Shown here piece after piece: positions 1,628-23,109 of a stretch of 64,000 nucleotides of DNA. The notes below the pieces were generated by a model. The model was not told where the DNA came from and did no database searches. It saw only the letters and a program-made list of their open reading frames with translations. This DNA comes from an uncultured Candidatus Saccharibacteria bacterium (lineage in GTDB: Bacteria; Patescibacteriota; Minisyncoccia; Phycocordibacterales; UBA5272): assembly GCA_964457775.1 (NCBI GenBank), contig CAYWEW010000002.1, forward strand, positions 44,335-108,334. Direction: 5' to 3'. The first letter of the stretch is position 1, and each line of letters starts with the position of its first letter. Both the position numbers and the translations under genes were made by a program.

Positions 1628-1715
1628 GATACTGGGAGTATATAAATTTTTTAATGAGACATAGTAGACCTACGGCGAATTAAAAATTTCGTAATGACAA
1701 CGTAGATGAAATAAT
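1628..1715 (-). repeat. 3'UTR palindromic element, copy 1 (same family as 19873-19973 and 22983-23109)
   Basis: Starts directly after the gap stop codon (1716-1718). Aligns with the other two copies: ...tacggcgaattaaaaatttcgtaatgacaacgtagatgaa vs ...ttgcggaagcaaaaatctgtagcaacaaagcagatggg. Its inner stem aaattttttaat/attaaaaattt replaces cagatttttgc/gcaaaaatctg of copy A with both strands changed. Confidence 0.55.
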
Positions 1716-2777
1716 TTATGACTTTATTGTTTTCCCAACTCTTGAAACATGTTCTACGAGAGTATGAGTATACCCCATTTCATTGTCATACCAAGCAAGA
1801 ATCTTAACGAGATTACCTCCAACAACGCGAGTCATTTTAAGGTCTGCAATCGAAGCAAATGGAAGACCAAGAATATCACTAGACACTAATTCTTCTTCTG
1901 TTACTGCAAAAATATCCCTCCATTGGTCAGTTCTAGAAGCGTCCGTTAGAGCCTTATTAATTTCTTCTACTGTGGTAGGACGCTTTGAAATAAATGTGAT
2001 GTCTGCAATAGATCCTGCTGGTGTAGGGACGCGAATAGACACCCCATCAAAAAGCCCCTCAAGGCTCGGAAATGCCTTTGTAACAGCAATTGCTGCCCCA
2101 GTCGACGAAGGTACGATATTCTGTGCAGCAGCACGTCCTTCACGAAAATCTTTCTTATTAGGACCATCTACAATACCTTGTGATGCTGTATATGAGTGAA
2201 CGGTGTTTAATATAGCTTTTTCGATTCCAACAACTTTGTCCAAAATAGCAATTACAGGTGATGAAGCATTTGTTGTACAAGAAGCATTCGATGTAACTTG
2301 AGTAGTTCCGAACTTCTCTTCATTTACACCAAGAAGAATTGTCTCTCCGGGAACGGAAGTATCCTCACCTTTCTTTGCTGGTGCAGAAATAACAACTGCC
2401 TTTGCACCACCTTTTATGTGAGCTGAGGCTTTATCATATGCTACGAATAGCCCAGTAGACTCAACAACCACATCAACTTCATTTGCTCCCCAAGGAATAA
2501 GTGCAGGGTCTCTTTCTTGAATAACCTTTACTCTCATATCTTTTTCTCCTTCAACGACAAGATATTGTTCTTTTATATCATCATGAACTTCTGCATGTAC
2601 ATCAAAATGTGACACGCGGTACACTGTGTCATACTGAAGAAGATATGCAAGATTGTGTACATCTCCTAAATCATTAATAGCAACTACTTCCATATCATCT
2701 CGCTCGAGTGCAACTTTAAAGAAAGCACGTCCGATGCGACCGAAACCATTTATTCCAACTCGTATTTTTTTATCCAT
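1716..2777 (-). CDS. gap: glyceraldehyde-3-phosphate dehydrogenase
   Basis: MDKKIRVGINGFGRIGR Rossmann N-terminus and the catalytic SNASCTTNA motif. Length 353 aa. Confidence 0.95.
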   Translation of the reverse strand: MDKKIRVGINGFGRIGRAFFKVALERDDMEVVAINDLGDVHNLAYLLQYDTVYRVSHFDVHAEVHDDIKEQYLVVEGEKDMRVKVIQERDPALIPWGANEVDVVVESTGLFVAYDKASAHIKGGAKAVVISAPAKKGEDTSVPGETILLGVNEEKFGTTQVTSNASCTTNASSPVIAILDKVVGIEKAILNTVHSYTASQGIVDGPNKKDFREGRAAAQNIVPSSTGAAIAVTKAFPSLEGLFDGVSIRVPTPAGSIADITFISKRPTTVEEINKALTDASRTDQWRDIFAVTEEELVSSDILGLPFASIADLKMTRVVGGNLVKILAWYDNEMGYTHTLVEHVSRVGKTIKS

Positions 2778-2979
2778 ATCAATCTAGTATACAGGGACTA
2801 ATAGCTTGGGACTAGTTGATAACCATTAAGATTGCCGTAAAAACACAAAACCCCTTACAATCAAGTAAGAGGTATTACACAAGTTGGCGAACGCAAGGCG
2901 TTTTTATCAAGCCTAACTTTATGTATGTGATGATGCTGTATATGTCTTTATACAACCAAGACACCTGATGCGATACTAC

Positions 2980-3177
2980 TTAGTTCTCGTAACTGATGCT
3001 TCCTTCCTGTTCATCGAGCGTTGGCTTTCTTGCTGACGAAAGAACAATTGGATCACAACATTCTATGATATGACGGATATAATTCATCCTGTTATAATCA
3101 TAAAAAGCAGGATCTTCTTGATACGAAGGTAGATTTAATTGATACTCGGCGGTAAAGTCATTTGTCTCATTTCTCAT
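2980..3177 (-). CDS. hypothetical small protein (65 aa)
   Basis: ORF track only. Intergenic position downstream of the nrd/nif operon. Confidence 0.25.
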   Translation of the reverse strand: MRNETNDFTAEYQLNLPSYQEDPAFYDYNRMNYIRHIIECCDPIVLSSARKPTLDEQEGSISYEN

Positions 3178-3264
3178 CTTTTGTTTCCCTTTCTTTTAAA
3201 GTGCAACATCATAAGCACCATGCCTATGACATTGTAATACTATCATAATCCCTCTAAAAAACAA

Positions 3265-3966
3265 CTAAAAAATGGCTTCTGTGTAAATTGTTTCTTCTTT
3301 TACACCACCTTCTTTTAGTCCTTTCCAAAAGTCACGAACAAACGGGATAGAGCCACATATAAGAAATTCTTTATTTTCTATATTTTTTGTTTCTTCTAGA
3401 ATATCAAAGACTTTTATTCTTTCATTTTTTATCCCCTCTTCATTAACATCCTGCTGAGTAATATAATTTTTAAATTTAAAAAAACCATTCTCTTGTTGTA
3501 CTTTTTTTAATTCATCTCCAAAAACAATATCACTAACATTCTTATTACTATTAAATAGAAACATTTCTCGTTTTTTGTTTTTTGCAACGGAGTCCATAAT
3601 TATACTTCGAAACGGTGCAATCCCCATCCCTCCTGCAATCATAACGAGTGTCGTATTTTCTTCTTCACTATAAAAATATCCATACGGAAGTGACGCTTCT
3701 ACTTTATCTCCCGTATTCATAGCACATAATTTATTTGAAAATTGCCCAACACCTTTTACAGTAATATTAAGGGTTTGTTCATGTGGCGCACTTGATATGG
3801 TATATGCCTTACCTTCAGCGTTTCCAGCATCATCAAAGTAAACTGTAATGAATTGTCCGGCATAATACTTTGGAACACCAGCATCACATGACAATCTCAA
3901 AGTAAAAACATTTTTGGTTTCTTGTATTTTTTCTTTGACAGTATATTTTATTCTATTTTCTTTCAT
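3265..3966 (-). CDS. FAD/NAD(P)-binding oxidoreductase of the ferredoxin-NADP reductase / PyrK-like family, without a C-terminal Fe-S domain
   Basis: NAD-binding GGMGIAPF motif, an FAD-binding beta-barrel N-terminus (FTLRL...GQFITV) and an AY/TISS flavin motif. Its stop overlaps the start of the NifU-like gene (3953-3966). Confidence 0.65.
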   Translation of the reverse strand: MKENRIKYTVKEKIQETKNVFTLRLSCDAGVPKYYAGQFITVYFDDAGNAEGKAYTISSAPHEQTLNITVKGVGQFSNKLCAMNTGDKVEASLPYGYFYSEEENTTLVMIAGGMGIAPFRSIIMDSVAKNKKREMFLFNSNKNVSDIVFGDELKKVQQENGFFKFKNYITQQDVNEEGIKNERIKVFDILEETKNIENKEFLICGSIPFVRDFWKGLKEGGVKEETIYTEAIF

Positions 3967-4381
3967 ACTCTTCTATTGCTTCACGTAATGCGAGATGCGA
4001 CAACACCGAACAATGGTATTTTCTATCTGGAAGTCCTCCTAATCTATCAATAATTGCTTCTGGTGTTAATCTTTTTGCTTTACTCAGTTCCATTCCTCCT
4101 TTTTCTGTCACCATAACTGACATCATTGATGTTGAAGCAATAGCAGACGCACAACCAAATGTCCTCCACTTACATTCTGTAATAACTTTTTTATCCTTAT
4201 CTACTTTTACCCAAACCGCCATCATGTCACCACAAAGTGGGCTACCTGTTACCCCAAGCCCGTCAGCGACATAGTCCTTATCATCAACTAAAATATTTTG
4301 TGGACGAAAAAAATGCTCTTTTACAGCATCACTATATAGCCAGTTTTCTCCATCACATTTATTATATTCATTTATTGTCAT
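3953..4381 (-). CDS. iscU: Fe-S cluster assembly scaffold, NifU/IscU family
   Basis: Conserved Cys scaffold residues (GSPLCGDMM ... FGCASAIASTS ... HCSVLS), 142 aa. Overlaps the upstream cysteine desulfurase by 4 nt. Confidence 0.85.
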   Translation of the reverse strand: MTINEYNKCDGENWLYSDAVKEHFFRPQNILVDDKDYVADGLGVTGSPLCGDMMAVWVKVDKDKKVITECKWRTFGCASAIASTSMMSVMVTEKGGMELSKAKRLTPEAIIDRLGGLPDRKYHCSVLSHLALREAIEEYERK

Positions 4382-5604
4382 AGATTTATAGTTAATGATG
4401 ACATACTTTTTAGTCTTTTTACAATACCCGATAATTCATTTACGAAGTAATCCAAATCCTCTTTTGTCGTATCCTTTCCTAAAGAAATACGAATACTGCC
4501 GTGCACAAGATTAGATTTAGAATCAGCAGATTCTCGACTGTGCTGTAAATTAATTGCATGTAATACATGTGAAACCTCCAAATCATGCGATGAGCAAGCT
4601 GAGCCGGTAGACACTTGTATTCCAATTTCATCCAACATAAGAACAATTGATTCACCTTCTATAGATGGAATAGAGATGTGCACATTGTTTGGCAAACGAT
4701 TAATTGGGTGCCCGTTTAAAACTATATCATTAATATATTCTCTTAAAATTTTTATCAAATAATCACGAAGTGCAGTTAGCCTTTCGAACTCTTTCACTCT
4801 TTTTTCTTCAACCATTCTAAGTGATTCACACATTCCAACAATAAGTGGAACACTTTCAGTTCCGCTACGTAGACCCTGCTCTTGTCCACCACCAAAAATA
4901 ATTGGTTCAATATTTATATTTTCTTTTTTATATAGTACCCCTATACCTTTGGGACCGTATATTTTGGACGCATTGATTGTCATTAAATCGACTCCGAGAG
5001 TTTGTACATTTATTGGTAATTGTCCTGCTGCTTGGCATGCATCGGTGTGGAAGTATGGACAACCATTAGCTATTGGCATTTGGCTTTTTGTTTTATTAAT
5101 TCTATTTCCTAGTTCTACTATTGGTTGTATAGTCCCTATTTCATTATTCGCATACATCACAGAAACTAGAATCGTTTTATCCGTTATCATTTTCATAACT
5201 TCATCCACATTAACTATTCCATATTCATCTACTGGAATATATTCCAAGACAAAACCCTCTTTTTCTAATTGCTTCGCTGAATCTAATACTGCCTTGTGCT
5301 CAATTGATGAAATAAGAATATGGTTCCCGTGTTTTTTATTATCTCTAGCAATACCTAAAATTGCCAAGTTATCCGACTCTGTTCCCGAACCAGTAAAAAT
5401 AATTTCAGAAGATTTAGCTCCAATGATTTCGGCAACACCCTGCCTTGCACGCTCTATAATATGCTTTGATTTTCTCCCAATTTCGTAGACGGACGACGGA
5501 TTACCATATTCACCACCAAAATATGGCAACATTTTTTCTAGCACCCGCATATCAATAGGTGTAGTTGCAGCATTATCTAAATAAATTAGACGTTTCATTT
5601 CCAT
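4378..5604 (-). CDS. iscS: cysteine desulfurase (NifS/IscS class V aminotransferase)
   Basis: PLP-fold hallmarks including SSIEHKAVLD and the active-site SxGSAC (STGSACSS). Confidence 0.88.
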   Translation of the reverse strand: MEMKRLIYLDNAATTPIDMRVLEKMLPYFGGEYGNPSSVYEIGRKSKHIIERARQGVAEIIGAKSSEIIFTGSGTESDNLAILGIARDNKKHGNHILISSIEHKAVLDSAKQLEKEGFVLEYIPVDEYGIVNVDEVMKMITDKTILVSVMYANNEIGTIQPIVELGNRINKTKSQMPIANGCPYFHTDACQAAGQLPINVQTLGVDLMTINASKIYGPKGIGVLYKKENINIEPIIFGGGQEQGLRSGTESVPLIVGMCESLRMVEEKRVKEFERLTALRDYLIKILREYINDIVLNGHPINRLPNNVHISIPSIEGESIVLMLDEIGIQVSTGSACSSHDLEVSHVLHAINLQHSRESADSKSNLVHGSIRISLGKDTTKEDLDYFVNELSGIVKRLKSMSSLTINL

Positions 5605-5624
5605 ATTTTATAGCATGACATATT

Positions 5625-6314
5625 TTATCGAACTCCACAAAACTGAACATACTTGGTGAGGTTTTTTTGAAATTCAGCAAATTCTTCATCATTATATGTG
5701 GTTTTTTTGATAAATTGAGGGTTAAGAATTTTAGACGGGATAAATTTTTGTAAATAATATTTTTTAGCTCCTTTGATTTCTTTTGCAATTTCTTCGATGT
5801 CTTCCGGCGATAACATCACTTTCAAAACAGTTGTACGGAACTCATACTCCACATCTGAATTCATAATAAGAGATATACTTTTCTTAATTGATTCTATATC
5901 GACAGGACGAGAAACTGTCTGACTATATTTTGCAAGTGGAGACTTTACATCCATTGCTATATAGTCCACTAATTTTTTATCAATAGCTTGTTTCAAAAAA
6001 TCTGGATTGGTGCCATTTGAATCTAACTTAACAAGGAAACCTCTATCTTTAACTTCCTTCATGAAGGAGAGAAGTTTGTCCCCATGTATAGTTGGCTCTC
6101 CCCCTGTTATAACTACACCATCTAGCATTTTCTTTCTACTCTCAATAAATTCCAAAATTTCTTTTTCAGAAAATCTATGTGTCACTGTTTCATCAACTAA
6201 TTCTGGATTGTGGCAATATGGACACCTAAAATTACATCCAACTGTATAGACCATACAAGCTATCTTTCCTGGATAGTCTATAAGTGTACATTTTTCAAAT
6301 CCTCCGAATTCCAT
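5625..6314 (-). CDS. nrdG: anaerobic ribonucleoside-triphosphate reductase activating protein (radical SAM)
   Basis: CNFRCPYCHN radical-SAM CxxxCxxC motif in a ~230-aa protein directly downstream of nrdD. Confidence 0.88.
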   Translation of the reverse strand: MEFGGFEKCTLIDYPGKIACMVYTVGCNFRCPYCHNPELVDETVTHRFSEKEILEFIESRKKMLDGVVITGGEPTIHGDKLLSFMKEVKDRGFLVKLDSNGTNPDFLKQAIDKKLVDYIAMDVKSPLAKYSQTVSRPVDIESIKKSISLIMNSDVEYEFRTTVLKVMLSPEDIEEIAKEIKGAKKYYLQKFIPSKILNPQFIKKTTYNDEEFAEFQKNLTKYVQFCGVR

Positions 6315-6315
6315 T

Positions 6316-8493
6316 TTATTTTATCTTAACCGAAACAGTGACGGGTTCTTCAACGCATACTGGGGATACTTCTCCTGGAATATACATTTCACGAATATCA
6401 TACTCTGCTTTTTTCGCATCATTCCATTGACTAACAGGACGCAAGTAACCAACAACACGTGAATATACTTCGCATGTACTTGTACAAGTTGGGCAAGAAA
6501 AATGTTCGCCTGAAATATAACCATGTGTACCACAAACACTGAAAGTTGGTGTGATTGTAAAATATGGCAATCTATAATTCTCACAAATCTTCTTCACTAA
6601 ATTCGGCACAGCCTTGTAATCAGTCATACGTTCACCTATGAAAAGATGTATAACTGTTCCACCGGTATACTTCGTCTGTAGACCATCTTGGATATCAAGT
6701 GTCTCAATAATGTCTTGTGTATAGTTAACTGGAAGATGTGATGAGTTAGTATAAAATGGCTGAGCCCCCAACTTAACTTCTGGTTCGTTTGCAACAATAA
6801 TATCTGGATACATCTTCTTGTCACGAGCAGCGAATCTGTATGTTACCCCTTCTGCTGGAGTTGCTTCCAAGTTATATAAGTTACCTGTTTCTTGCTGATA
6901 TGAAATCAGTCGATGACGCATGTGATCTAGAACTTCACCAGCCAATACTCTACCATCTTCTGTACCAATATCTTCACCTATAAGATTAAGAGCTACTTCA
7001 TTCATACCAATGAGTCCAATTGTAGAGAAATGGTTTTTCCAATATTCACCAAAACCTTTTTTGATATTTCTTAAATAGAACTTTGTATATGGGTACAGAT
7101 TAGCCTCTGTTAATCTTTCAATAAGTTTTCGCTTAATTTCTAGACTTTCCTGTGCGATGTCCATTTGCTTATCAAGTTTTTCATAGAAGTCTGCTTTTGC
7201 TTTTACAAGATCATCTTTATTCTTACTCTTCGCAACATATGAAAGTCTAGGTAAGTTAATAGTCACTACTCCAACTGAGCCAGTTAGAGCGTTCGCACCG
7301 AATAGTCCACCTCCACGACGATCTAGTTCTTCTAGGTCAAGACGAAGACGGCAACACATTGATCGAGTATCTTCTGGTTTCATATCTGAATTAACAAAGT
7401 TACTGAAATATGGAATACCGTACTTTGCTGTGATTTCCCAAAGGCCCTTCAATTTTTCATTTTCCCAGTTAAAATCTTTTGTAATATTAACTGTCGGAAT
7501 TGGGAATGAAAATACTTTTCCGGTTGCGTCCCCTTCTGCCATAACTTCAAAAAAAGCTTCGTTCAACATATCCATTTCAGCTTGGAAATCTCCATACTTT
7601 TCCTTTTGTTGCTTGCCTCCAATAATTACAGGCATATCTTTGAAGTTTGGTGAAGGATTAAGATCAAGAGTAATGTTTGAGAATGGTGTTTGGAAACCAA
7701 CACGAGTTGGCACATTCATATTGAACACAAACTCTTGAATGGATTGTTTCACTTCCTTTTGTGTAAGATTGTCATAACGAATAAATGGCGCGAGTAATGT
7801 ATCGAAGTTAGAAAAAGCAATAGCTCCAGCTGCTTCACCTTGCATTGTGTACATAAAATTCACAATCTGACCAATAGCTGTACGAAAGTGCTTTGGTGGA
7901 GCTGATTCAATTTTATCGGTAACACCTTTAAATCCTTCAGTGAGAAGATCCATCAAATCCCAACCAACACAATAAATTGCAAGTGTGCCAAGGTCATGTA
8001 TATGAATATCTCCATTTTCATATGAGTCACGAATTTCCTTTGGATAAATTTTGTTCAACCAATATGTCTTACTAACTTCTGAGAATAGATAATTGTTCAG
8101 TCCTTGAAGAGAGTATCCCATATTACTATTCTCTTTTACCTGCCAGTCTAATTTATCAAGATAATTATCAACAAGACCGAGAGATGCCTTGGTTGCGAAC
8201 GCTCTCATCTCTGCGTGCTGTTCACGATAAACAATATATGCCTTAGCAGTTTGCTTATATCTAGAATGCATCAAAATCTGCTCAACAGCATCTTGTATTT
8301 GCTCAACATTAGGGAAATTACTGTATTCTTTATTTTCTATATATGCGACTATTTGCTCAGTTAAATCTCGGGCCTCATCATCTCTAAATTCTCCTGTTGC
8401 CTTACCAGCTTTTGCAACTGCGTGAACAATCTTTTCCTTGTCAAAAACTTCTGTTTTTCCGTCTCTTTTTGTGATTTTTGTGAGTTTAGCCAT
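6316..8493 (-). CDS. nrdD: anaerobic (class III) ribonucleoside-triphosphate reductase with N-terminal ATP-cone
   Basis: ATP-cone N-terminus (KRDGKTEVFDKEKI), a C-terminal Zn-ribbon (CPTCTSTC) and a glycyl-radical motif (RVVGY). 725 aa. Confidence 0.92.
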   Translation of the reverse strand: MAKLTKITKRDGKTEVFDKEKIVHAVAKAGKATGEFRDDEARDLTEQIVAYIENKEYSNFPNVEQIQDAVEQILMHSRYKQTAKAYIVYREQHAEMRAFATKASLGLVDNYLDKLDWQVKENSNMGYSLQGLNNYLFSEVSKTYWLNKIYPKEIRDSYENGDIHIHDLGTLAIYCVGWDLMDLLTEGFKGVTDKIESAPPKHFRTAIGQIVNFMYTMQGEAAGAIAFSNFDTLLAPFIRYDNLTQKEVKQSIQEFVFNMNVPTRVGFQTPFSNITLDLNPSPNFKDMPVIIGGKQQKEKYGDFQAEMDMLNEAFFEVMAEGDATGKVFSFPIPTVNITKDFNWENEKLKGLWEITAKYGIPYFSNFVNSDMKPEDTRSMCCRLRLDLEELDRRGGGLFGANALTGSVGVVTINLPRLSYVAKSKNKDDLVKAKADFYEKLDKQMDIAQESLEIKRKLIERLTEANLYPYTKFYLRNIKKGFGEYWKNHFSTIGLIGMNEVALNLIGEDIGTEDGRVLAGEVLDHMRHRLISYQQETGNLYNLEATPAEGVTYRFAARDKKMYPDIIVANEPEVKLGAQPFYTNSSHLPVNYTQDIIETLDIQDGLQTKYTGGTVIHLFIGERMTDYKAVPNLVKKICENYRLPYFTITPTFSVCGTHGYISGEHFSCPTCTSTCEVYSRVVGYLRPVSQWNDAKKAEYDIREMYIPGEVSPVCVEEPVTVSVKIK

Positions 8494-8861: not shown

Positions 8862-8916
8862 CCCGCAAAATACAAAATCCTACAAATTTAATTTGTAGGA
8901 TTTTGTATTTTGCGGG
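8862..8916. terminator. 26-bp perfect palindrome adjacent to the 3' end of tRNA-Trp
   Basis: cccgcaaaatacaaaatcctacaaa-ttta-atttgtaggattttgtattttgcggg. Shares the TTTTGTATTT arm motif with the hairpin at 19762-19805. Confidence 0.6.
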
Positions 8917-8983
8917 CCCACGAGGAATCGAACCTCGACCAACGGATTTGGAGGCCGTTGTTCTGCCACTAAACTATAGGCCC
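8913..8983 (-). tRNA. trnW: tRNA-Trp (anticodon CCA); CCA 3' end not encoded
   Basis: Reverse complement GGGCCTATAGTTTAGTGGCAGAACAACGGCCTCCAAATCCGTTGGTCGAGGTTCGATTCCTCGTGGGCCC. Acceptor GGGCCTA/TGGGCCC has one G-U pair. D arm GTTT/GAAC. Anticodon loop CTCCAAA gives CCA. T arm CGAGG-TTCGATT-CCTCG. The 31-39 pair is a C/U mismatch. The discriminator is followed by CA, not CCA. Confidence 0.75.
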
Positions 8984-9263: not shown

Positions 9264-10667
9264 CTAAATTGCAAGGTTTTCACTAAAATACTTTACTAAA
9301 TCAGCAATTGGAACACGCACTTGTTCCATAGTATCCCTATCACGCACAGTTACAGCATTATCAGTCAAAGTATCGAAATCTACAGTTACACAGTACGGTG
9401 TACCGATTTCGTCCTGTCTACGATATCTTTTACCGATTGATTGAGTATCATCATATTCTACAAAAAACTTTTTAGATAGTGTTTTCCAAATTTCTTTCGC
9501 AGGACCTGACAACTCTTCTTTCTTTGATAATGGCAACACTGCGACTTTAACTGGAGAAAGACGTTTATCGAATTTAAGAACTACACGAGTTTCGTCGTTT
9601 ACGATTTCTTCAGTATAAGCGTTATCAATAAAAGCTAGTGTCATACGTGCTACACCAACTGATGTTTCTACGATATGCGGCACAAATCTTTCTTTTGTCG
9701 CTTCATCAAAATATGACAAATCTGTTCCTGAGAATTTACTATGTTGAGTCAAATCAAAATCCCCCCTTGCATGTATTCCTTCCATTTCTTTAAATCCTCC
9801 CAACATCGCATAATTATATTCAATATCATATGCATCGGACGCATAATGTGCTAGCTTCTCATGTTTGAACCAATTTAATTTATTCTCTGGGATACCATAA
9901 TCAAGGTAAAAATTCCATCTATCCTTGTGCCATCCTTCAAAAATATCCCCTGTTTGTGATGGATGATGAAAGTATTGCATTTCCATTTGCTCGAACTCAC
10001 GGGTACGGAATACGAATTGCTTAGCTACAATTTCATTACGAAAAGCTTTACCAATTTGTGCAATACCAAATGGTAGCTTTGGGTGTAGCGAGTCGATGGT
10101 ATTTTTATATTCCAAATAAATACCACCACATGTTTCTGGTCTAAGATATACAACATTTTCTTCAGACAATGCGTCCGTTGGTGAGCCGAGATTAGACTTC
10201 ACCATAAGTGAGAAGACTTTCGCCTCTGTCACATCTGCACTAGAACAGTTTGGACAAGCAAGTTTTTTGTCGGCTCGCAATTTATCTAATTCTTGATTAA
10301 TAAATTCAAGTGGTTGTTTATCAGCATTAATACCGAAACCTTCAAGAAGATGATCTGCTCGAAAGCGACTCTTACATTTCTTGCAATCTATTTGTGGGTC
10401 ATTGAATCCATCGACGTGCCCGGACGCTTTCCAAGCCATTGGATGCATAAAAATAGCGCTGTCTAACAATACAACGTCCATACGTTCTTGTGCAATACTC
10501 TTTTGCCACGCATTTTTTACGTTATTAAGAAGAAGTGTCCCATAATGTCCATAATCATACACACCAGAGAACCCGCCGTAAATTTCAGATGATGCAAAAA
10601 TAAATCCCCTCCTTTTACAAAGAGAGACTATTGCTTCCATACGAGCTTGAGAGTCATTTGTATTCAT
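9264..10667 (-). CDS. glyQS: glycine--tRNA ligase (dimeric class II type)
   Basis: SSEIYGGFSGVYDYGHYG N-terminal motif, class II core (FRNEI, RTREFEQMEMQYF) and an anticodon-binding C-terminus. 467 aa. Confidence 0.9.
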   Translation of the reverse strand: MNTNDSQARMEAIVSLCKRRGFIFASSEIYGGFSGVYDYGHYGTLLLNNVKNAWQKSIAQERMDVVLLDSAIFMHPMAWKASGHVDGFNDPQIDCKKCKSRFRADHLLEGFGINADKQPLEFINQELDKLRADKKLACPNCSSADVTEAKVFSLMVKSNLGSPTDALSEENVVYLRPETCGGIYLEYKNTIDSLHPKLPFGIAQIGKAFRNEIVAKQFVFRTREFEQMEMQYFHHPSQTGDIFEGWHKDRWNFYLDYGIPENKLNWFKHEKLAHYASDAYDIEYNYAMLGGFKEMEGIHARGDFDLTQHSKFSGTDLSYFDEATKERFVPHIVETSVGVARMTLAFIDNAYTEEIVNDETRVVLKFDKRLSPVKVAVLPLSKKEELSGPAKEIWKTLSKKFFVEYDDTQSIGKRYRRQDEIGTPYCVTVDFDTLTDNAVTVRDRDTMEQVRVPIADLVKYFSENLAI

Positions 10668-13565: not shown

Positions 13566-14312
13566 TTATTCTGAACAAACACCATCAGAACCCATAGCTC
13601 CACCTTTTATTTCACAATTACATGTTTCTACAGAACTTCCATTATCAACGCAAGTTTGAAGAGCTGATTTAGTTCCCTTTACTGAATTATTACTACCTGT
13701 GGAACAAGAATTGTCAGTAAGATTCCAAATACCTCCACTTGCTTCACAATTACATGTTTCTACAGAACTTCCATTATCAATACAAGTTTGAAGAGCTGAT
13801 TTAGTTACTCCACCAGTATTATTATTACCTGTAGAATTAGTTACACCTCCAGTATTATTATTACCAGCAGACTGTGCACCATTTTGAGCAGAAGGAACTG
13901 TCCCTGTTCTAAAATTGAAACTTGGTATATCAATAGTAGTTACATCTTTTCCTTGGAATAGAATACTTTGGCCCAGTTTTATTATTCCATAAACAGAGAA
14001 CATAACGAAAAGTGCGATAAGCCCCCATTTCATAAATTCACCACCAACTTGTACCCCTTTTCCATCACCTTGTCTCTTAGCCCAGATGTACTCGATAATG
14101 CCGTAGAAAAAGGCAAGTAAGGCTACTGAAAGAGCAAGTGTGCCTAAAGCTTTTACAACTGTTGAAGTAAATAATTGAATAAGTATCGCAGTTGCCCCTA
14201 TTCCTGTAATTGCGTCCTGCACGGTTACTGTACCTGTTACAGCAAAAGTGACTAGTGGTGTAAGAATTATACTAGTAAAAATGACAGCTTTTATTATAGG
14301 TGATTTTTTCAT
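13566..14312 (-). CDS. TrbC/VirB2-like pilin-family membrane protein with a Cys-rich C-terminal tandem-repeat extension, paralog 3
   Basis: Core LALSVALLAFFYGIIEYIWAKRQGDGKG...WGLIALFVMFSVYGIIKLGQSILFQGK is about 70% identical to paralog 4. The C-terminus carries two near-identical repeats (...GTKSALQTCVDNGSSVETCNC...). Start moved to the internal Met. The ORF track extends to 14354. Confidence 0.6.
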   Translation of the reverse strand: MKKSPIIKAVIFTSIILTPLVTFAVTGTVTVQDAITGIGATAILIQLFTSTVVKALGTLALSVALLAFFYGIIEYIWAKRQGDGKGVQVGGEFMKWGLIALFVMFSVYGIIKLGQSILFQGKDVTTIDIPSFNFRTGTVPSAQNGAQSAGNNNTGGVTNSTGNNNTGGVTKSALQTCIDNGSSVETCNCEASGGIWNLTDNSCSTGSNNSVKGTKSALQTCVDNGSSVETCNCEIKGGAMGSDGVCSE

Positions 14313-14358
14313 AAATATAATTAAAGTGTACACTATAAGGCTTTTAAAATGCAACGAA

Positions 14359-14748
14359 CTACTTTAGTTGAATGTTTGGAATATTAATTGTATTAACTTC
14401 TTTCCCTTGAAAAAGAATACTCTGGCCAAGATTTATAATTCCATAAACTGAGAACATAACAAACAGTGCAATGAGTCCCCAAACCATGAACTTATTCCCA
14501 TCTCCTAGAGCCTTTTCGTCTCCTTTTCTTCTTGCCCAAATATATTCAATAAGTCCATACAAAAATGCTAGCAAACCTAGCGCAAGAAAAAGGCCACTTA
14601 ATGCGCTTATTACACTATTTGTAAAAGTACTAACTAAAGATGCAAAAGTTTCTGAACCAGAACTTATCCCCGCGAAGGAAACTGTTGGGCAAATAATAAA
14701 TAATATAAAAATGATTGCTTGTTTGATGTTATTTTTTTTCATATACAT
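14359..14748 (-). CDS. TrbC/VirB2-like pilin-family membrane protein, paralog 4
   Basis: Signal peptide ending SFA^G, TM1 LFLALGLLAFLYGLIEY, loop IWARRKGDEKALGDGNKF, TM2 MVWGLIALFVMFSVYGIINLG. Confidence 0.6.
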   Translation of the reverse strand: MYMKKNNIKQAIIFILFIICPTVSFAGISSGSETFASLVSTFTNSVISALSGLFLALGLLAFLYGLIEYIWARRKGDEKALGDGNKFMVWGLIALFVMFSVYGIINLGQSILFQGKEVNTINIPNIQLK

Positions 14749-17342: not shown

Positions 17343-17456
17343 AGTCTAAAGTCAAAAGTGGGGACAAAATACAATGCAAGCACTTCGTGGTTGCATTGTA
17401 TTTACTTTATGGACTTTATAAACTTTACACTTTATGGACTTTTGACTAACTAATCG
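17343..17456. repeat. MITE-like palindromic element R1 (GTCAAAAGT...TTATGGACTTTTGAC family)
   Basis: Arms gtcaaaagtgggg ... ctttatggacttttgactaactaatcgc. The right arm ends at the stop codon of the upstream gene. It shares the arms and the flank gacta(a/t)ctaatc(c)gc with R2. Confidence 0.5.
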
Positions 17457-18017: not shown

Positions 18018-18365
18018 TTAGTGTAAATTTTCGCTAGTATTTTTTTCTAAATCCTCTAACGCTTGTTTAGTTAAAACTCTTTTTTCTATTTCTGCTATAA
18101 AGCCAGCATAAGTTTTTACATCCCTGTCAGAGAATAAACCTTTATGTTCCTCCATAGCATCCCTTAATGCCCTTAAATTTTCAGCGGTATATTCTGGAGT
18201 GAATTCAATATTACTTCCTGGTATTTTACCTGGGCTTATTAAACTTTTTGCCTCTTCAACTGTCATAGTTCCAACACCTGGTACAATTATTTTTTCAACT
18301 CCACCATTGTTGCCAACATTATCACTATTTGTAAAATCCAAACTTCTATTTTGTTCCATATTCAT
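18018..18365 (-). CDS. hypothetical protein (115 aa)
   Basis: ORF track only. No recognised motif. Confidence 0.4.
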   Translation of the reverse strand: MNMEQNRSLDFTNSDNVGNNGGVEKIIVPGVGTMTVEEAKSLISPGKIPGSNIEFTPEYTAENLRALRDAMEEHKGLFSDRDVKTYAGFIAEIEKRVLTKQALEDLEKNTSENLH

Positions 18366-18503
18366 ATATTAATAGTATACATTAAAACAAAAGAGTAATC
18401 ATTTCGTTATAACTCTAAATTACACACATTTGCAGAATACATTAAAAAAATATAGTATGCATTTGGAGGGAATTTTCCCAGAATCCATAAGGAGGAAGTT
18501 GCT

Positions 18504-19292
18504 ATGAGTAACACAGATCCAAAGTGGCCAAAAAGTATTACCCTGATACGTCACGGTGAATCAGCGTATAACATCTTGCGTCACAAGAAAGAAAATGATG
18601 CTTTGTACCGCGCGTTCAAAAAGGCATTTGAAAAAGACCACACCTCAAAAGAAACGAGGACTCTTGCTGAAAAAGTTCGCATCAAATTCGCTCTAAATGT
18701 TAGCGACTATGATACGCCACTTACTGATGAAGGGTTGCGTCAATCAATAGAAACTGGAAAAGGTATTAGTGAAATTATACCGATACCTGATGTAGTTATT
18801 TGTTCACCATATCTGCGTACAAAACGCACGTTGGATGGAATTAACCTTGGTAGTTATTGGCGAATTGATCCAAAAATAGTAATTATGGATGACCGTGTTC
18901 GCGAACAAGAACATGGCCTATCACTTCTTTACAATGATAAGCGAGTTTTTTACACATTTCACCCCGAGCAAAAAGAGTTGATGGAATTGCTTGGTCCGTA
19001 TTGGTATCAGTATCCACAAGGAGAATCAGTCGCAGAAGTAAGGGACAGAATACGTCTAATGACAGATACAATCATACGCGAATACTCAGGTTTACACGTT
19101 CTCATAATCACACATCATCTGACCATTCTCTCGATACGGGCAAATTTCGAAAGAATGTCTCCAGAACAATTTCTTGAAATCGATGAAAAAGAAAAGCCAA
19201 TCAATTGCGGGGTTACTATGTATAAATGTAATCCAAATAAAGGAAAGAAAGGAAGGCTTGAACTTGAATTCTATAACAAACGTTTTTATTGA
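18504..19292 (+). CDS. histidine phosphatase family protein (phosphoglycerate-mutase-like)
   Basis: Catalytic RHGES motif (ITLIRHGESAYN) near the N-terminus. 262 aa. Confidence 0.8.
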   Translation: MSNTDPKWPKSITLIRHGESAYNILRHKKENDALYRAFKKAFEKDHTSKETRTLAEKVRIKFALNVSDYDTPLTDEGLRQSIETGKGISEIIPIPDVVICSPYLRTKRTLDGINLGSYWRIDPKIVIMDDRVREQEHGLSLLYNDKRVFYTFHPEQKELMELLGPYWYQYPQGESVAEVRDRIRLMTDTIIREYSGLHVLIITHHLTILSIRANFERMSPEQFLEIDEKEKPINCGVTMYKCNPNKGKKGRLELEFYNKRFY

Positions 19293-19309
19293 GATCATCT
19301 TGATTCATT

Positions 19310-19341
19310 ATCGCTACCAAATAGGTAGCGATTTCTTTTTG
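19310..19341 (+). terminator. intrinsic terminator of the histidine phosphatase gene
   Basis: atcgctacc-aaat-aggtagcgat followed by ttctttttg. Confidence 0.6.
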
Positions 19342-19383
19342 TTGCAATGTTTATTTTTAAAATCTCTAATTTTTAATTACTAG

Positions 19384-19440
19384 AAATAAAAAAGCCACCA
19401 AGAAAATCATGTTCTCTGGTGGCAAACTTTACGTTTTATT
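19384..19440 (-). terminator. intrinsic terminator of the 75-aa Cys-rich gene
   Basis: Minus strand: gccaccagagaacatgattttcttggtggc followed by ttttttatttc. Confidence 0.5.
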
Positions 19441-19448
19441 AAAATTAT

Positions 19449-19676
19449 CTAAACCCTAGAAGGCAAATTACGGTGGACATTTCCCTTATTCCACCCAAGC
19501 ACAAAAGTTTTGTCAGAATCTACTGGTAAAACACCTCCTCGATAACCGACAGCATAACCAGAGTCAAACAAGTTCCGTTTTGTTTTTTCTTCATTACCAT
19601 CAGGTCTGGTTGGGCAACTTATATCATGCCCGGTGGGTAACCCACAATAATAACAAACATTGCGGTGCATCTTCAT
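19449..19676 (-). CDS. small Cys-rich (zinc-ribbon-like) protein, 75 aa
   Basis: CYYC...C...C arrangement near the N-terminus. Bracketed by terminators on both sides. Confidence 0.45.
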   Translation of the reverse strand: MKMHRNVCYYCGLPTGHDISCPTRPDGNEEKTKRNLFDSGYAVGYRGGVLPVDSDKTFVLGWNKGNVHRNLPSRV

Positions 19677-19761
19677 CTCCTAAGTTTGATTGTATAGTAC
19701 CACTCAAAAAATACACTACCATGTTTATATAAGATAGTCAATGAAGCGTTGATAAGCAACC

Positions 19762-19805
19762 CAAATACAAAAGCGCGTCTTACGACGCGCTTTTGTATTT
19801 GTATT
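19762..19805 (-). terminator. terminator hairpin downstream of gyrA and its 3'UTR element
   Basis: caaatacaaaagcgcgtc-ttac-gacgcgcttttgtatttg, an 18-bp stem with the same arm motif as 8862-8916. Confidence 0.55.
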
Positions 19806-19872
19806 AAGTTTTCGTATTTTCATTTTTACCACCAACCTCTGAACTTGAGAGTTAGAAAGTCAGAAATTATTC

Positions 19873-19973
19873 CAGATGCGAGGCGTTACAGATTTTTGCG
19901 ACCAAGATGTACGAAAAGTACATTGCGGAAGCAAAAATCTGTAGCAACAAAGCAGATGGGATGATTTATGACT
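19873..19973 (-). repeat. 3'UTR palindromic element, copy A
   Basis: Ends at the gyrA stop (19974-19976). Nested stems: acagatttttgc ... gcaaaaatctgt (12 bp) around atgtac-gaaaa-gtacat, plus imperfect outer inverted repeats aagtcagaaattattcc / ggatgatttatgacttt. Confidence 0.6.
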
Positions 19974-22457
19974 TTATAACAAATTGAAGGAAGCGAGTGT
20001 ATCCCCTTCACGAAGTTTCATAATACGTACACCTTGTGTATCACGTCCTAAAGTTGGAATAGAAGTTAATTCTGTACGAATCACTTGTGAATCCTTTGAG
20101 ACTGCGAGTAATTCCTCATTCTCTCCGGTAACTACACGCGCAATCATGAGTTTTCCAGTCTTTTCTGTTACCTTAACTGTCTTGATACCACTACCACCAC
20201 GCTTTTGTATCTTGTATTCAGAAAGTTTTGTCTTCTTTCCATAACCATTACCTGTCATAATCAAAAGCTCCGCGCCTTTTGTTCCACCAGGAATTTTGTC
20301 AGACGCAACGATCACATCACCTTTATCTAATTTCATTCCGATAACCCCTGCTGCTGTACGCCCCATTTCGCGAACATCAGTATGACTGAAGCGAATTGAC
20401 TGACCATTTTGTGTGGTAAGAATAACACTGTCTTCATCTTGAACGAAAAGTGTTGCGAGTAATTCATCTCCTTCTTCTAATTTGATTGCAATTAATCCGT
20501 TACGACGAACGTCCTTGAATGACTCTGCTGATGATTTCTTCACTGTGCCATTCTTTGTAATCATCATTAACGAAACCTTGTCATCACTCTTACTGTTCTT
20601 CATTTCTTTTTCCATCGGTAAGATCGATGTAACCTTTTCTCCGTCAGACAATTGAAGGAAATTCATAATACTCTTTCCACGTGTCGCACGCTTCCCTTCT
20701 GGTAAATCGTACATCTTAATCTGATACGCCTTTCCTTTATCAGTAAAGAAAAGTAAATCACTGTGAGTTGAAGTCGTAAGTGACATTGTTACAAAATCCT
20801 CTTCTTTGGTGTTCATATCAACAACACCAACACCACCACGTTTCTGTGTACGGAATTCATCTGGGTCAGTACGCTTAACATATCCACCAGATGTATATAC
20901 GAGTACTTCATCACGGTCAGCAATCAAATCCTCTGGATTAAATTCCTTGGCTTTATGCTTCACTATCTTTGTGCGACGTTCATCACCATACTTTGCTTTT
21001 ATATCTGTAAGCTCGTCTTTGATAATACTCATCATCTTCTTAACAGACGCAAGTATTGCTTGCAATTCTGCAATCAACTTTTGAACCGCTTTCAAATCAT
21101 CTTCAATCTTCTTTCTTTCAAGTCCAGCTAAACGTTGCAATTTCATTTCAAGAATCGCTGTTGCTTGTATATCTGAGAATTTAAATTTCTTCACGAGTTG
21201 GACGTGAGCATCCGGTGTGTCTTTTGAGGCACGAATAGTTTTGATGATTTCATCAATATGATCAAGTGCTTTTTTAAGTCCGAGCAAAATATGTTCCTTT
21301 TCAAGAGCGCGCTTGAGATCAAACTCTGTACGACGACGAACGACTTCCTTTCTGTGTCCGATAAATGATTCGAGAGCACCTTTAAGAGCAAGAGTTTGTG
21401 GTACACCATCAACAAGAGCGACCACATTGTAGTGGAACATACTCTCTAGTTCAGTGTGCTTATATAAATAGTTGAGAATTTTTTGTGGGTGACTTCCTGA
21501 TTTCAAATCAATCACAACACGAATATCTTTTGTAGATTCATCACGAAGACCTTTTATACCTTCAATCTTTTTCTCTCTCACTAGGTCAGCAATATTTTCA
21601 ATCAAATTACTCTTAAGAACTCTAAAAGGAATTGAAGTAATAATAATTTGGAACTGTCCGTTCTTTGTTTCAAAAATTTCTGCCTCCCCTCTTACTGTTA
21701 CTCCACCGCGACCTGTTGCATACGCTGCACGTATATCTGATTGGCCAAATGCGATACCTCCAAGTGGAAAGTCTGGTCCTTTTACGAATTCACAAAGGTC
21801 CTCAGTTGTTGCTTGAGGATTATCAATCAAGTGAGTTGTCGCATCAATAACTTCTGTTAGATTGTGTGGTGGGATGTTAGTCGCCATACCTACCGCAATA
21901 CCAAGAGTTCCATTTAGTAGTAGGTTAGGAACAGCGGTTGGAAGAACGCGAGGTTCTTTTTTACTTCCATCATAATTCGGCTCCATTTGAACAGTATCCT
22001 TTTCAATATCACGAAGCATTTCCATAGACACCTTAGACATCTTGGCTTCTGTATAACGATATGCCGCTGCACCGTCACCATCGATTGAACCAAAGTTTCC
22101 TTGACCCATTACAAGTGGATATCGATATGAAAAGTCTTGAGCAGACTTCACCATCGCATCATACACTGATGCATCACCATGTGGGTGATAGTTACCGAGC
22201 ACATCTCCAACAATAGTCGCCGACTTTCGGAACTTAGCTCCAGGAGTAAGTCCCATATTATTCATCGCAAAAAGTATACGACGATGCACTGGCTTAAGAC
22301 CATCACGCGCATCAGGTAGAGCGCGGGATGTAATAACTGACATCGCATAATCAAGATATGCTTCACGCATTTCTTGTGCAATATTAACTGGATGAAGTCC
22401 TACGTGAATTGGTTTCGGTGCGATTGGTTCTTCAGGTGTTGTTGTCTTTTTTGCCAT
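19974..22457 (-). CDS. gyrA: DNA gyrase subunit A
   Basis: [10 protein letters not shown]...; active-site region [40 protein letters not shown]. 827 aa with C-terminal beta-pinwheel repeats. Confidence 0.95.
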
Positions 22458-22515
22458 AAATTAACGAGTTTTAAGTTGTATTAGTATAGCATTAAACGCA
22501 TCCTTTAGCCAGTAG

Positions 22516-22854
22516 CTATTGGTTGTCATTTGTGTATGTTTCTTCCCCTTTTAACAATTCTTTTCTAGAAGTATTAATATTGTTTAATTGAACTTTGGCT
22601 TCACCTATAAACCTTGAAAACATCTCACTTGGGGATTCTGGAGTTGCTGTAGCTGTAGTGCTAATAATCAATTCTTCACTCATATATTTTTCATGCCAAA
22701 ATCCATAATCAACGTATAGAATAACAGCTGCAATCATTGTCGTAATGATTCCGGCAATGATAGCAGAATACACACGTTGCATATGATTTGACTGACGTCG
22801 AAGAAATAACAGCCAATGATGTGGGTGAAGATATTTTTTTAGAATCTTTTTCAT
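22516..22854 (-). CDS. membrane-anchored hypothetical protein (112 aa)
   Basis: Single TM helix (IIAGIITTMIAAVILYV). ORF track only. Confidence 0.4.
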   Translation of the reverse strand: MKKILKKYLHPHHWLLFLRRQSNHMQRVYSAIIAGIITTMIAAVILYVDYGFWHEKYMSEELIISTTATATPESPSEMFSRFIGEAKVQLNNINTSRKELLKGEETYTNDNQ

Positions 22855-22982
22855 AAAGATTATTATACAGCTAATAGCTTATAGTCGATAGCTGATGGCA
22901 AAATACATACGGATGCAAAGTATTCAGTTATTTGTATGTATTCGCATCTCTGTTGTTCAGAGATTATCCATTAGCTTACCAC

Positions 22983-23109
22983 TCTAAACAAAAAATTTGC
23001 TTTAGATACGAGGCGTGGCTGATTTTTGAGACCAAAATGTACGAGTAGTACTTTGCGGAAGCAAAAATCTGCCACAACAAAGTAGATGAAGCAAATTTTT
23101 TGTTTAGAG
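22983..23109 (-). repeat. 3'UTR palindromic element, copy B
   Basis: Perfect 19-bp outer inverted repeat ctctaaacaaaaaatttgc ... gcaaattttttgtttagag that includes the stop codon (23104-23106) of the MBL-fold gene. The core is about 80% identical to copy A (gatacgaggcgtggctgatttttgagaccaaaatgtacgagtagtactttgcggaagcaaaaatctgccacaacaaagtagatg). Confidence 0.6.

Follow-up and report, generated by a model that had tools for sequence, protein, structure and literature searches.

What are the roughly 100-nt imperfect palindromes that follow the stop codons of three minus-strand genes, gap, gyrA and an MBL-fold gene, in the window (the whole stretch of 64,000 nucleotides of DNA analyzed here, from an uncultured bacterium of the Paceibacteria, within the candidate phyla radiation, CPR)? 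The first-pass annotation saw in them a family of repeats with a selected RNA structure, either 3'-UTR stability or processing elements or a REP/MITE-like mobile palindrome with a preference for stop codons. The repeat family is real: copies B and C, adjacent to gyrA and the MBL-fold gene, respectively, show 85% identity across 85 nt (19874–19958 versus 23004–23088), have in common the 19-mer TTGCGGAAGCAAAAATCTG (2 occurrences versus 0.05 expected), and form hairpins of about 130 nt each with z-scores of −13.7 and −12.0 against shuffled sequences. All the nested stems initially described are present, namely, the outer repeat, the middle stem cagatttttgc/gcaaaaatctg and the inner hairpin atgtac-N5-gtacat. 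The three reported copies were recovered, and a divergent fourth one, D, had been overlooked, so that the covariance-model search yields a total of 4 copies in the window:

Copy A, ~1606–1730, plus strand: decayed member; the gap reading frame terminates within its right arm.
Copy B, 19851–19980, plus strand: 130-nt imperfect palindrome, full hairpin; outer stem formed by 19851–19879 and 19952–19980.
Apical module of copy B, 19900–19931, plus strand: GACCAAGATGTAC-GAAAA-GTACATTGCGGAAG; invariant columns.
Copy C, hairpin 22981–23110, plus strand: 130-nt imperfect palindrome; 141.4 bits under the covariance model.
Apical module of copy C, 23030–23061, plus strand: same module as in copy B; invariant columns.
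Copy D, about 59080–59207 (59073–59212), plus strand: divergent subfamily with the same architecture.

Copy B scores 138.3 bits with the covariance model in the window and folds at −62 kcal/mol on the plus strand versus −44.1 on the minus strand, the well-folding strand being antisense to gyrA; its apical module consists of two asymmetric 2x2 loops, a CC/GG mini-helix and a 7-bp helix capped by the pentaloop. Copy A, the similarity of which to copy B extends beyond the stop codon into the coding ends, folds no better than shuffled sequences (z-score −1.3) and scores 44.6 bits in one covariance-model search and 64.8 bits in another; because this copy is degenerate, the replacement of its middle stem with pairing preserved is, on its own, weak evidence of selection. 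Copy D (58 bits in one search and 90 bits in another; −51.4 versus −38.8 kcal/mol on the opposite strand) is located in the gap between divergently oriented genes, with the start codon of the minus-strand ORF 58547–59062 about 20 nt away, rather than after a stop codon, and its nearest relative is the element at 7105–7243 of locus L017.

The stop codons of the three genes are located where the first-pass annotation had put them, and the placement of copies A and B between the stop codon and the terminator stands as well, for copy A with a terminator that was read by eye:

gap stop codon TAA, 1716–1718, minus strand: within the right arm of copy A.
gyrA stop codon TAA, 19974–19976, minus strand: paired at the base of the copy B stem.
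MBL-fold gene stop codon TAA, 23104–23106, minus strand: within the right arm of copy C.
Bidirectional intrinsic terminator, 19762–19801, both strands: serves gyrA (minus) and the convergent ORF 18504–19292 (plus); separate from the element.
Hairpin followed by a T-run, likely the gap terminator, ~1540–1574, minus strand: absent from the terminator-scan list; separate from the element.

Given that the terminator at 19762–19801 lies beyond copy B, this copy is inside the gyrA transcript and is shielded from plus-strand read-through. The elements themselves do not qualify as intrinsic terminators, which have a GC-rich stem with a U-tract directly after it, the separate hairpin 19762–19801 being the only one listed by the terminator scan, and no plus-strand promoter was found upstream of B or C.

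With a covariance model, 22 copies were gathered from Paceibacteria/Yonathbacteria genomes and metagenomes. Among these copies, 92.5% of the cells are paired, compared to 69.2% in shuffles (0 of 500 reached as high a value) and 36–50% in slid controls, and 38 of the 45 pairs show changes on both sides. The family fold is thus strongly supported and is maintained through compensatory change, with selection-like covariation on the nested hairpin. The element-derived core of about 105 nt is topped by the invariant apical module GACCAAR-AUGUAC-pentaloop-GUACWUY-GCGGAAG, underneath which lie a freely covarying middle stem, an asymmetric purine loop (CGAGGCR opposite AACRAAG), a 3-bp helix, a tandem G·A (AGAU/AGAU) and an A/T-rich closing stem; conservation increases toward the apex, and the outer 5–14 bp vary by site and match the local flank. 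The tandem G·A is directly flanked by Watson-Crick pairs on both sides, with no 3-nt bulge, unlike in a kink-turn or a box C/D-like RNA, and the ACCA and GGAAGCA strings shared with the bacterial small SRP RNA (RF00169), the domain IV loops of which are closed by a GNRA tetraloop, occur in another secondary-structure context, with no Rfam match at E ≤ 10. More generally, Rfam 15 produced no match to the elements at the gathering threshold across the window, none at E ≤ 10 over 19700–23300 besides a 16-bit chance match to rliD, and none to the elements in eight related loci. No published description of the repeat family was found, and it is undescribed. The copy number appears low, 0–4 per 20–64 kb.

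Eighteen of the 22 copies lie directly against, or extend over, the stop codon of a housekeeping gene (rpsG in eight lineages, tuf, fusA, gyrA, gap, ssb, mreB, a KH-domain gene and the MBL-fold gene), with the insertions falling 0–13 nt downstream of the stop. The proposed preference for stop codons is, therefore, a strong bias but not a universal rule: two copies (D and L017) are located 16–20 nt upstream of a start codon, and one (L004, 5295–5434) lies within a 523-nt insertion in 23S rRNA, in a helix loop at LSU model position ~1766, the copy being closed by an 18-nt complementary flank. The rpsG copies are located inside the str operon, and the rpsG-fusA site is filled in 8 of the 9 sampled lineages. 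For some BIMEs, a role has been suggested as a feature of double-stranded DNA that lies past highly transcribed genes, be it a binding site for a nucleoid protein or gyrase or a cruciform. Such a feature would fit the location of the elements downstream of highly expressed genes, and the invariant bases of the apex might constitute a motif in dsDNA; however, this reading, which we deem very improbable, leaves unexplained the 38 covarying pairs as well as the strand-specific wobble excess and the fixed orientation to the gene described below.

We denote the maintained, better-folding strand E+ and its complement, which is the sense strand of the adjacent gene, E−. In all 22 copies, E+ folds better, by 11.2 kcal/mol on average, a difference that holds with DNA parameters too, and in all 22 it is antisense to (that is, the template strand of) the adjacent gene; the RNAalifold consensus energies are −47.3 for E+ and −32.9 for E−, the latter still being a long stable hairpin (−30 to −67 kcal/mol in individual copies). 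The distinctive features of E+ are the tandem G·A, GNRNA-type loops, purine-rich internal loops (77% of the unpaired internal bases are purines) and wobble pairs. There are 49 G·U pairs versus 13 A·C on E+, or 30 versus 13 without the two majority-G·U columns, although the excess is partly inherited, with 19 of the 49 contributed by these two columns, and the copies do not count as independent observations. In L023, two new T·G pairs are seen on E+ relative to the orthologous rpsG site of L022. The GC skew of the window makes the plus strand C-rich, so that background mutation bias would predict the opposite asymmetry.

The invariable antisense orientation of the better-folding strand argues against a simple 3'-UTR RNA element, and the original proposal that the conserved structure is that of the 3'-UTR RNA fails on the same point, given that the strand that bears the wobble pairs, tandem G·A and GNRNA loops is antisense to the mRNA in all 22 copies. 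In a rival reading, E−, positioned immediately behind the stop codon, is a host cis-acting mRNA element selected as a 3'-end stabilizer, an RNase III processing site or a regulator coupled to translation termination, modeled on the E. coli REP inside operons. Several observations favor this scenario: the elements are always co-transcribed with the upstream gene, ahead of real terminators; several are placed between cistrons of conserved operons (rpsG-fusA in 8 lineages, tuf-rpsJ, KH gene-trmD); the host genes are all highly expressed housekeeping genes; and E− remains a very stable hairpin. Furthermore, compensatory changes have occurred in place at the rpsG site (L003 versus L011; L022 versus L023). 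Nevertheless, we consider this scenario unlikely, considering that E− is the worse-folding strand throughout and the 49 G·U pairs are on the other strand (versus 13), that, on E−, pyrimidines predominate in the conserved loops and a U·C/C·U mismatch takes the place of the tandem G·A, that some copies are located at start codons or within an rRNA insertion, and that sites are empty in close relatives and element similarity is incongruent with the host phylogeny. Alternatively, E+ itself could be transcribed, as a multi-copy structured antisense ncRNA the 3' end of which overlaps the stop region of the convergent gene and which binds a dedicated protein. E+ possesses the hallmarks of a functional RNA, namely, G·U pairs, tandem sheared G·A, A-rich asymmetric loops, invariant loop bases and GNRNA-type pentaloops (GAAAA, GAGUA, GAAUA, GAACA), and the two strands differ by about 100 bits under the covariance model. 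However, there is neither a conserved or detectable promoter upstream nor a terminator downstream, copy B is boxed in by the bidirectional terminator, the copies in the str operon and in the 23S rRNA gene are found where antisense transcription is unlikely, and the copies show presence/absence polymorphism, so that this possibility appears quite unlikely.

Comparison of orthologous sites shows gain and loss. The copy B site is empty in five relatives (L016–L020, with GyrA 89–95% identical), the copy C site is filled in the window and L020 only, and the tuf site is filled in L022 but empty in L021 and L023; the empty sites in close relatives, without direct target duplication, indicate that the element was gained and lost. 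Judged against the empty site in L019, the inserted DNA of copy C spans 22978–23102; the junction (...CTCTAAA[insert]AAGCTAAT...) is clean, without a direct repeat, and instead includes an inverted copy of the flank, such that the left end of the copy (ACTCTAAA) repeats, in inverted orientation, the native end of the coding sequence together with its stop (TTTAGAGT on the plus strand). The tuf site comparison (L022/L023) is likewise clean. The elements in L003 and L005 are 98% identical, whereas S7 is just 78% identical and the flanks are unalignable. In L020, the apical loops have been turned into a perfect palindrome, a DNA-level palindrome conversion. Among the genes that were annotated, which make up part of the window and of the loci, no transposase, reverse transcriptase or recombinase was found adjoining any copy, and no autonomous parent element was seen.

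Several known classes of repeats share some but not all of these features. The REP/BIME and REPIN elements of proteobacteria are mobilized by RAYT, a Y1/HUH transposase; a REP unit spans 20–40 nt and carries a conserved GTAG on its 5' side, and two such units, often inverted, make up a REPIN. REPs less than 15 nt from stop codons have been reported to influence translation. Similarly to REP/BIME, the present elements are imperfect palindromes scattered over extragenic sites; they are co-transcribed, either at the 3' ends of genes or between cistrons, form mRNA hairpins, persist for a long time at orthologous sites, carry strand-specific imperfections and lack classical target-site duplications. 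They differ in comprising a single 105–130-nt hairpin with a conserved apex, in their apparently low copy number and in their occurrence in a CPR taxon. A REP/REPIN unit could not be discerned: the halves are not palindromic, and GYAGAUG is found a single time, in the right arm, where it belongs to the tandem G·A; no RAYT/Y1 transposase was detected among the Pfam-annotated neighbors on partial contigs.

ERIC/IRU, Correia (NEMIS), BOX/RUP and bcr1 are structured MITE-like repeats of about 100–155 bp; these families have conserved terminal inverted repeats and are flanked by short direct duplications of the target (TA, TTTAT), and bcr1 has been reported to show compensatory changes along with strand-specific G·U pairs. 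The size, long imperfect hairpins, transcribed intergenic insertion and orientation-dependent RNA folding or processing are shared with the ERIC, Correia, BOX and bcr1 repeats, but here the ends are site-specific, there is no direct duplication, and the orientation relative to the host gene is antisense throughout. Of the properties of a classical MITE, presence/absence polymorphism (at the B, C and tuf sites) and multiple copies per genome (4 in the window) were observed; conserved terminal inverted repeats were not, with the outer 5–14 bp differing between sites, nor was a direct target-site duplication at C (versus L019) or at the tuf site (L022/L023). The suggestion of a REP/MITE-like mobile palindrome is supported by the presence/absence polymorphism, which is typical of such palindromes, but the family does not belong to the classical MITE or REP classes.

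The 23S rRNA intervening sequences, which are excised by RNase III, may be compared with the L004 copy, which is located inside a helix-loop insertion and is closed by complementary flanks, and the family shares with them a sporadic distribution among relatives, but most copies here are in mRNA 3' regions, and the structured strand is antisense to rRNA. IS200/IS605 palindrome-associated elements have two small hairpins in subterminal positions, insert at a fixed target of four or five nucleotides, and move by single-stranded DNA "peel and paste"; the active strand is the lagging-strand template, which is the sense strand for co-oriented genes. Elements derived from IS200/IS605 share with this family strand-specific hairpins, clean insertion without target-site duplication and a strong orientation bias, but the strand is the opposite one here, and no tnpA or tnpB gene was seen.

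An integron attC-type ssDNA recombination site, that is, a bottom-strand hairpin following a cassette ORF and recognized by a tyrosine recombinase, matches in several respects: an imperfect palindrome of ~60–140 nt beginning at the stop codon or inside it, a functional structured strand that is antisense to the ORF, structure prevailing over sequence and no target duplication. However, the host genes are core genes in conserved synteny rather than cassettes, the apex is conserved as opposed to the base in attC, and R and L boxes are lacking. The ends are unlike RYYYAAC...GTTRRRY: in the gene sense, copy B has GTTATAA...TTCTAAC, in reversed order, and copy C has CTCTAAAC...GTTTAGAG, neither of which fits the R''/R' core sites. 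No integrase gene was detected among the Pfam-annotated neighbors except for an unrelated rve gene; the locus that contains it, L016, lacks the element. This reading is scarcely tenable and is largely refuted here.

The explanation we favor, tentatively, with a probability of about 0.45, is that this is a family of non-autonomous mobile hairpin elements of Paceibacteria (Parcubacteria, CPR), in which the active strand is recognized by a trans factor whereas the complement is a passive passenger of host mRNAs, where it forms a 3' hairpin. E+ would be the active single strand in propagation, either as ssDNA or as an RNA/cDNA copy, and its invariant asymmetric loops would be recognized by a putative trans-acting protein. 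In compact genomes, only the insertions with a transcribed complement, E−, would survive, and the position right after the stop codon might be the one spot that spares terminators, promoters and start regions. The stem runs on for 5–14 bp into the site-specific flank because the far side holds an inverted copy of the native stop-codon region; such an extension could arise by intrastrand template switching (palindrome growth), with only the non-coding side being free to change. E− would then reside in the host mRNA upstream of the true terminator or the next cistron, where we infer that it probably acts as a 3'-exonuclease barrier or an RNase III site; its presence as an mRNA 3' hairpin may explain the long retention at rpsG-fusA.

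Some observations fit poorly with mobile hairpins. A conserved apex with variable ends is the opposite of known MITEs; the occupancy of rpsG-fusA, together with compensation in place, looks more host-selected than selfish; and, if the genes are co-oriented with replication, E+ is on the leading-strand template, the wrong strand for IS200/IS605-type ssDNA transposition.

A bolder and rather doubtful proposal is that E+ is the functional molecule of an element of a new kind: a folded single strand, either RNA or cDNA/ssDNA, which, together with a protein partner of its own, would home to the edges of translated regions in highly expressed genes, directly after in-frame stops or at the 5' edge of start regions; such homing would require translation or transcript information, not DNA sequence alone. 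If this is the case, the family would represent a mobile element guided by transcripts or ribosomes, or else an antisense regulator anchored at stop codons, and would be specific to CPR bacteria.

The window has a G+C content of about 35% and encodes a GyrA that is 87–96% identical to proteins labelled Candidatus Pacebacteria, so that the genome can be assigned to Paceibacteria/Parcubacteria within the candidate phyla radiation. The three palindromic elements that the first-pass annotation described downstream of minus-strand genes are present, and a covariance model of the family adds a fourth:

1606–1730, copy A, abutting gap (minus strand; stop codon 1716–1718)
19851–19980, copy B, abutting gyrA (minus strand; stop codon 19974–19976)
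22981–23110, copy C (hairpin), abutting an MBL-fold protein gene (minus strand; stop codon 23104–23106)
59073–59212, copy D, identified by the covariance model

The right arms of A, B and C contain their respective stop codons or border on them. Copies B and C are 85% identical over 85 nt, with a common 19-mer for which 0.05 occurrences are expected by chance, and form hairpins of about 130 nt (z scores of −13.7 and −12.0, respectively, against shuffled controls). Copy A is decayed (fold z −1.3; covariance-model score 44.6 bits). The claim that two copies precede the terminators of their genes holds as well: B lies between the gyrA stop codon and a bidirectional terminator (19762–19801), and A between the gap stop codon and a hairpin with a T-run (~1540–1574).

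Homologues were detected with a degenerate 34-nt pattern in one genome each of Ca. Yonathbacteria and Ca. Paceibacterota, and the apical pattern GACCAANATGTAC-N3-8-GTACNNNGCGGAAG matched 11 metagenome loci; a pattern match in Bacteroides (L002), without a covariance-model match, was dismissed as chance. The covariance model, made from 13 copies, additionally identified a second copy in one locus (L009). Loci syntenic with the window were retrieved via GyrA homologues and rpsG loci via homologues of the rpsG product, S7. Together, these searches produced 22 distinct copies, at a density of 0–4 per 20–64 kb, and a broader model, R2, found no additional copies in 344 kb. Rfam covariance scans at the gathering and permissive thresholds gave no matches to the element, and no published description was found in the literature. 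Two pattern scans of viral contigs also yielded no matches, hence no sign of phage origin.

RNAalifold predicts a single long hairpin, with compensatory changes at 29 of the 45 pairs, and the compensatory pairing proposed by the first-pass annotation is borne out across the family. In the 17-sequence model alignment, 92.5% of the cells are paired, compared to 69.2% in shuffles and 36–50% in slid-alignment controls, and both sides have changed in 38 of the 45 pairs, with none of 500 shuffles attaining either value. From base to tip, the hairpin consists of:

closing stem, at the base, A/T-rich
tandem G·A (AGAU/AGAU), above the closing stem
3-bp helix, above the tandem G·A, alternating between UAC/GUA and UGC/GCA
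asymmetric loop CGAGGCR opposite AACRAAG, above the 3-bp helix, nearly universal
middle stem, above the asymmetric loop, covarying fast
apical module, almost invariant, a CC/GG mini-helix between two 2x2 loops
7-bp helix, at the tip, with a pentaloop cap, often of the GNRNA type

The GC-rich rpsG variants carry 5-bp helices of differing sequence in place of the CC/GG mini-helix, a further case of covariation. Between two rpsG loci with 94% identical S7 (L003 and L011), there are two double substitutions, both fully compensatory. In the copy C orthologue (L020, 9274–9403), the usually asymmetric apical loops are now a perfect palindrome, CCACAATGTAC/GTACATTGTGG, which is evidence that one arm has been converted by the other at the level of DNA. 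In L022, the rpsG element is succeeded by a second, partial copy of its distal arm (GGCGCGCCTCGTATCACATCCCAAATAATTAG...; 10560–10650). Motif strings similar to those of the kink-turn, the hammerhead and hairpin ribozymes and SRP domain IV are present, but the architecture of the element does not fit any of these.

The positional bias toward 3' ends of genes extends to the family, with a stop codon abutted or overlapped in 18 of the 22 copies, as follows (L numbers denote the comparison loci; L009a and L009b are the two copies in L009):

rpsG, between rpsG and fusA: L003, L005, L007, L008, L011, L021, L022, L023
tuf: L022
fusA: L006
KH-domain gene upstream of trmD: L009b, L012
ssb: L013
mreB: L015
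MBL-fold gene: window copy C, L020
gyrA: window copy B
gap: window copy A

Copy D and the L017 copy each precede the start codon of a gene on the opposite strand by 16–20 nt, L009a is intergenic, and the L004 copy lies within a 523-nt insertion in the loop of a 23S rRNA helix. This insertion (5290–5813, in a 23S rRNA gene at 2808–6008) falls at position ~1766 of the 23S rRNA model; beyond the element, it includes ~350 nt with inverted repeats (5524–5558/5725–5759 and 5483–5510), and an 18-nt segment (5431–5448) duplicates the 3' strand of the rRNA helix (5805–5822). In L017, the D-type copy is followed by a GC-rich, structured-looking segment (7245–7330; GGTCTGGGCTCCGGTTCAG...CCTGAGCCGGGGATTACGCCAGAAC) with no Rfam matches at the gathering threshold.

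In the closing stem, the copies have the inner ~10 nt in common but not the outer 5–14 bp, which are specific to each site. The conserved CAUCU motif is 7 to 24 nt away from the stop codon. The element-derived core accordingly begins 0–13 nt past the stop codon, and the stem runs on through local sequence, taking in as many as 12 nt of coding sequence in fusA (L006) and ssb (L013). The idea that the element provides the stop codon or a new C-terminus was rejected, given that the native C-termini are intact (S7 ...FAHFAW-stop, SSB ...DDIPF-stop); GyrA ends in ...SFNLL-stop as in relatives, and the MBL-fold protein in ...HEL-stop as in L019, where the site is empty.

All five relatives with 89–95% identical GyrA lack an element at the gyrA site. 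At the MBL site, only the window and L020 carry one; at the tuf site, L022 does but L021 and L023 do not. The closest empty MBL allele (L019) reads ...CAC GAA CTC TAA A/AAGCTAAT, with the slash at the junction, and the filled allele in the window ...CTC TAA A[125 nt]AAGCTAAT; this comparison reveals no direct duplication, and the sequence at the far insert end, TTTAGAGT, reproduces the native ACTCTAAA in inverted form. Direct target site duplications (TA, TTA, YTAR) are absent at the defined junctions (MBL, tuf). Neither the B site nor the C site, where empty, supports insertion into the loop of a pre-existing hairpin, although the rRNA case in L004 fits. The empty site of L019 contains tandem CAGCCAT heptamers downstream of the MBL-fold gene (9418–9475). 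Function of the element as a double-stranded DNA site is very improbable, the specific tests having failed.

At rpsG, the elements of L003 and L005 are 98% identical, although S7 identity is just 78% and the spacer next to the elements does not align. The rpsG-fusA site is filled in 8 of the 9 sampled lineages, and S7 identity ranges from 67% to 94% among the five rpsG lineages compared; a Nomurabacteria genome has no element there. The 8-of-9 occupancy counts against a purely selfish picture. Such long retention, together with the operon positions, would fit a cis-element of the host, but this explanation is rather unlikely because it does not fit the strand polarity of the family.

The purine-rich strand of the element (E+) folds into a more stable structure than its complement (E−) in 22 of 22 copies, with a mean gain of 11.2 kcal/mol under RNA parameters (consensus energy, −47.3 vs −32.9), and DNA parameters likewise favour E+. 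The paired columns contain 49 G·U cells on E+ vs 13 A·C cells, that is, G·U on the other strand (30 vs 13 once two majority-G·U columns are omitted), and purines comprise 77% of the unpaired internal bases on E+. In all 22 copies, which are related and hence do not amount to 22 independent trials, E+ is antisense to the adjoining gene. The distant D-type and GC-rich subfamilies have the same polarity, and the orthologous copies of L022 and L023 differ by new T·G pairs on E+. Outside the elements, the plus strand of the window is C-rich; by the usual deamination argument, we infer that background mutation pressure would give the opposite asymmetry. At ~24000–25300, by gyrA, the sign of the GC skew flips and the genes are divergently oriented. 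This switch may be a replication origin, in which case D would be opposite to A–C relative to replication and the same relative to the neighbouring gene.

No sigma-70-like promoter was seen on the plus strand upstream of B or C, and the flanks of 13 copies have no motif in common; an internal sigma-70 promoter for the plus strand (only 8/12 matches across the B apex) was rejected, being unconserved in the GC-rich variants. The bidirectional terminator separates B from the convergent gene, and several copies reside within operons or an rRNA gene. Thus, E− is the RNA certainly made in place, and it belongs to the host transcript, ahead of the genuine terminator or of the cistron that follows. 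An antisense non-coding RNA would account for the RNA-like anatomy of E+ but is improbable given the lack of promoters and the operon and rRNA locations. Coding and translational roles were rejected: in C, as in several other copies, the ATG-TAC frame of a potential small ORF runs for only 3 codons; the phase of a gene-sense open frame to the stop codon varies (7–24 nt), and pyrimidine richness accounts for this frame; and the downstream genes lack the SD with which a CCUC/GAGG loop could engage in anti-SD/SD pairing.

Other repeats are found in the same loci. Intergenic copies of the motif CTTTATGGACTTTTGACT and of GACTTT-rich repeats related to it (window 17424–17455, 32120–32151, 32165–32203 and 40468–40506; L021 16360–16440; L023 10620–10665) often lie just 5' of genes and are candidate promoter or regulator sites; CTTTATGGACTTTTGACT resembles the outer arm (ATTTATGACTTTAT) of copies A and B. 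A 42-nt direct repeat (window 8717–8758/8812–8853; 98% identical, 95 nt apart) lies near a tRNA gene (8913–8983, minus strand). Small paralogous genes in tandem (77% identical) and repeats internal to adjacent genes (window 49481–50243 and 13600–14609) are unrelated to the hairpin family.

The best reading of these observations, to which we tentatively assign a probability of about 0.45, is a mobile non-autonomous hairpin, for which we infer the propagation, protein partner and mRNA effects as follows. The propagating single strand would be E+, as ssDNA or an RNA/cDNA copy, and a putative protein would recognise its invariant asymmetric loops. The element would persist only at sites where its complement is transcribed by the host and no terminator, promoter or start region is disrupted; in compact genomes, the surviving spot would be directly after the stop codon. 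The extension of the stem from the flank would be most readily accounted for by intrastrand template switching, with the coding side constrained, and E− would act, or be tolerated, as an mRNA 3' hairpin.

Similarly to REP/BIME, ERIC, Correia and bcr1, the element is dispersed, co-transcribed, hairpin-forming and insertion-polymorphic. Unlike MITEs, it has neither conserved terminal repeats nor direct target duplication; it differs from REP/REPIN in failing the GTAG-unit test, and from attC and terminators in failing their defining tests. An attC-like site, which fails on end sequences and context, merits hardly any credence. No described repeat family accounts for either the uniform antisense polarity or the stop-codon adjacency.

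In bacteria of the candidate phyla radiation, whose genomes are tiny and compact, few mobile elements or regulatory RNAs have been recognised. A structured repeat across Paceibacteria, located within core operons (rpsG-fusA, tuf-rpsJ), reaching into stop codons and also found in an rRNA insertion, would give this group a new marker of genome dynamics. The traits worth following are the antisense fold polarity, the tight stop-codon association and the stems growing into the coding end, and the element may offer a way into the biology of mRNA 3' ends in unculturable organisms.
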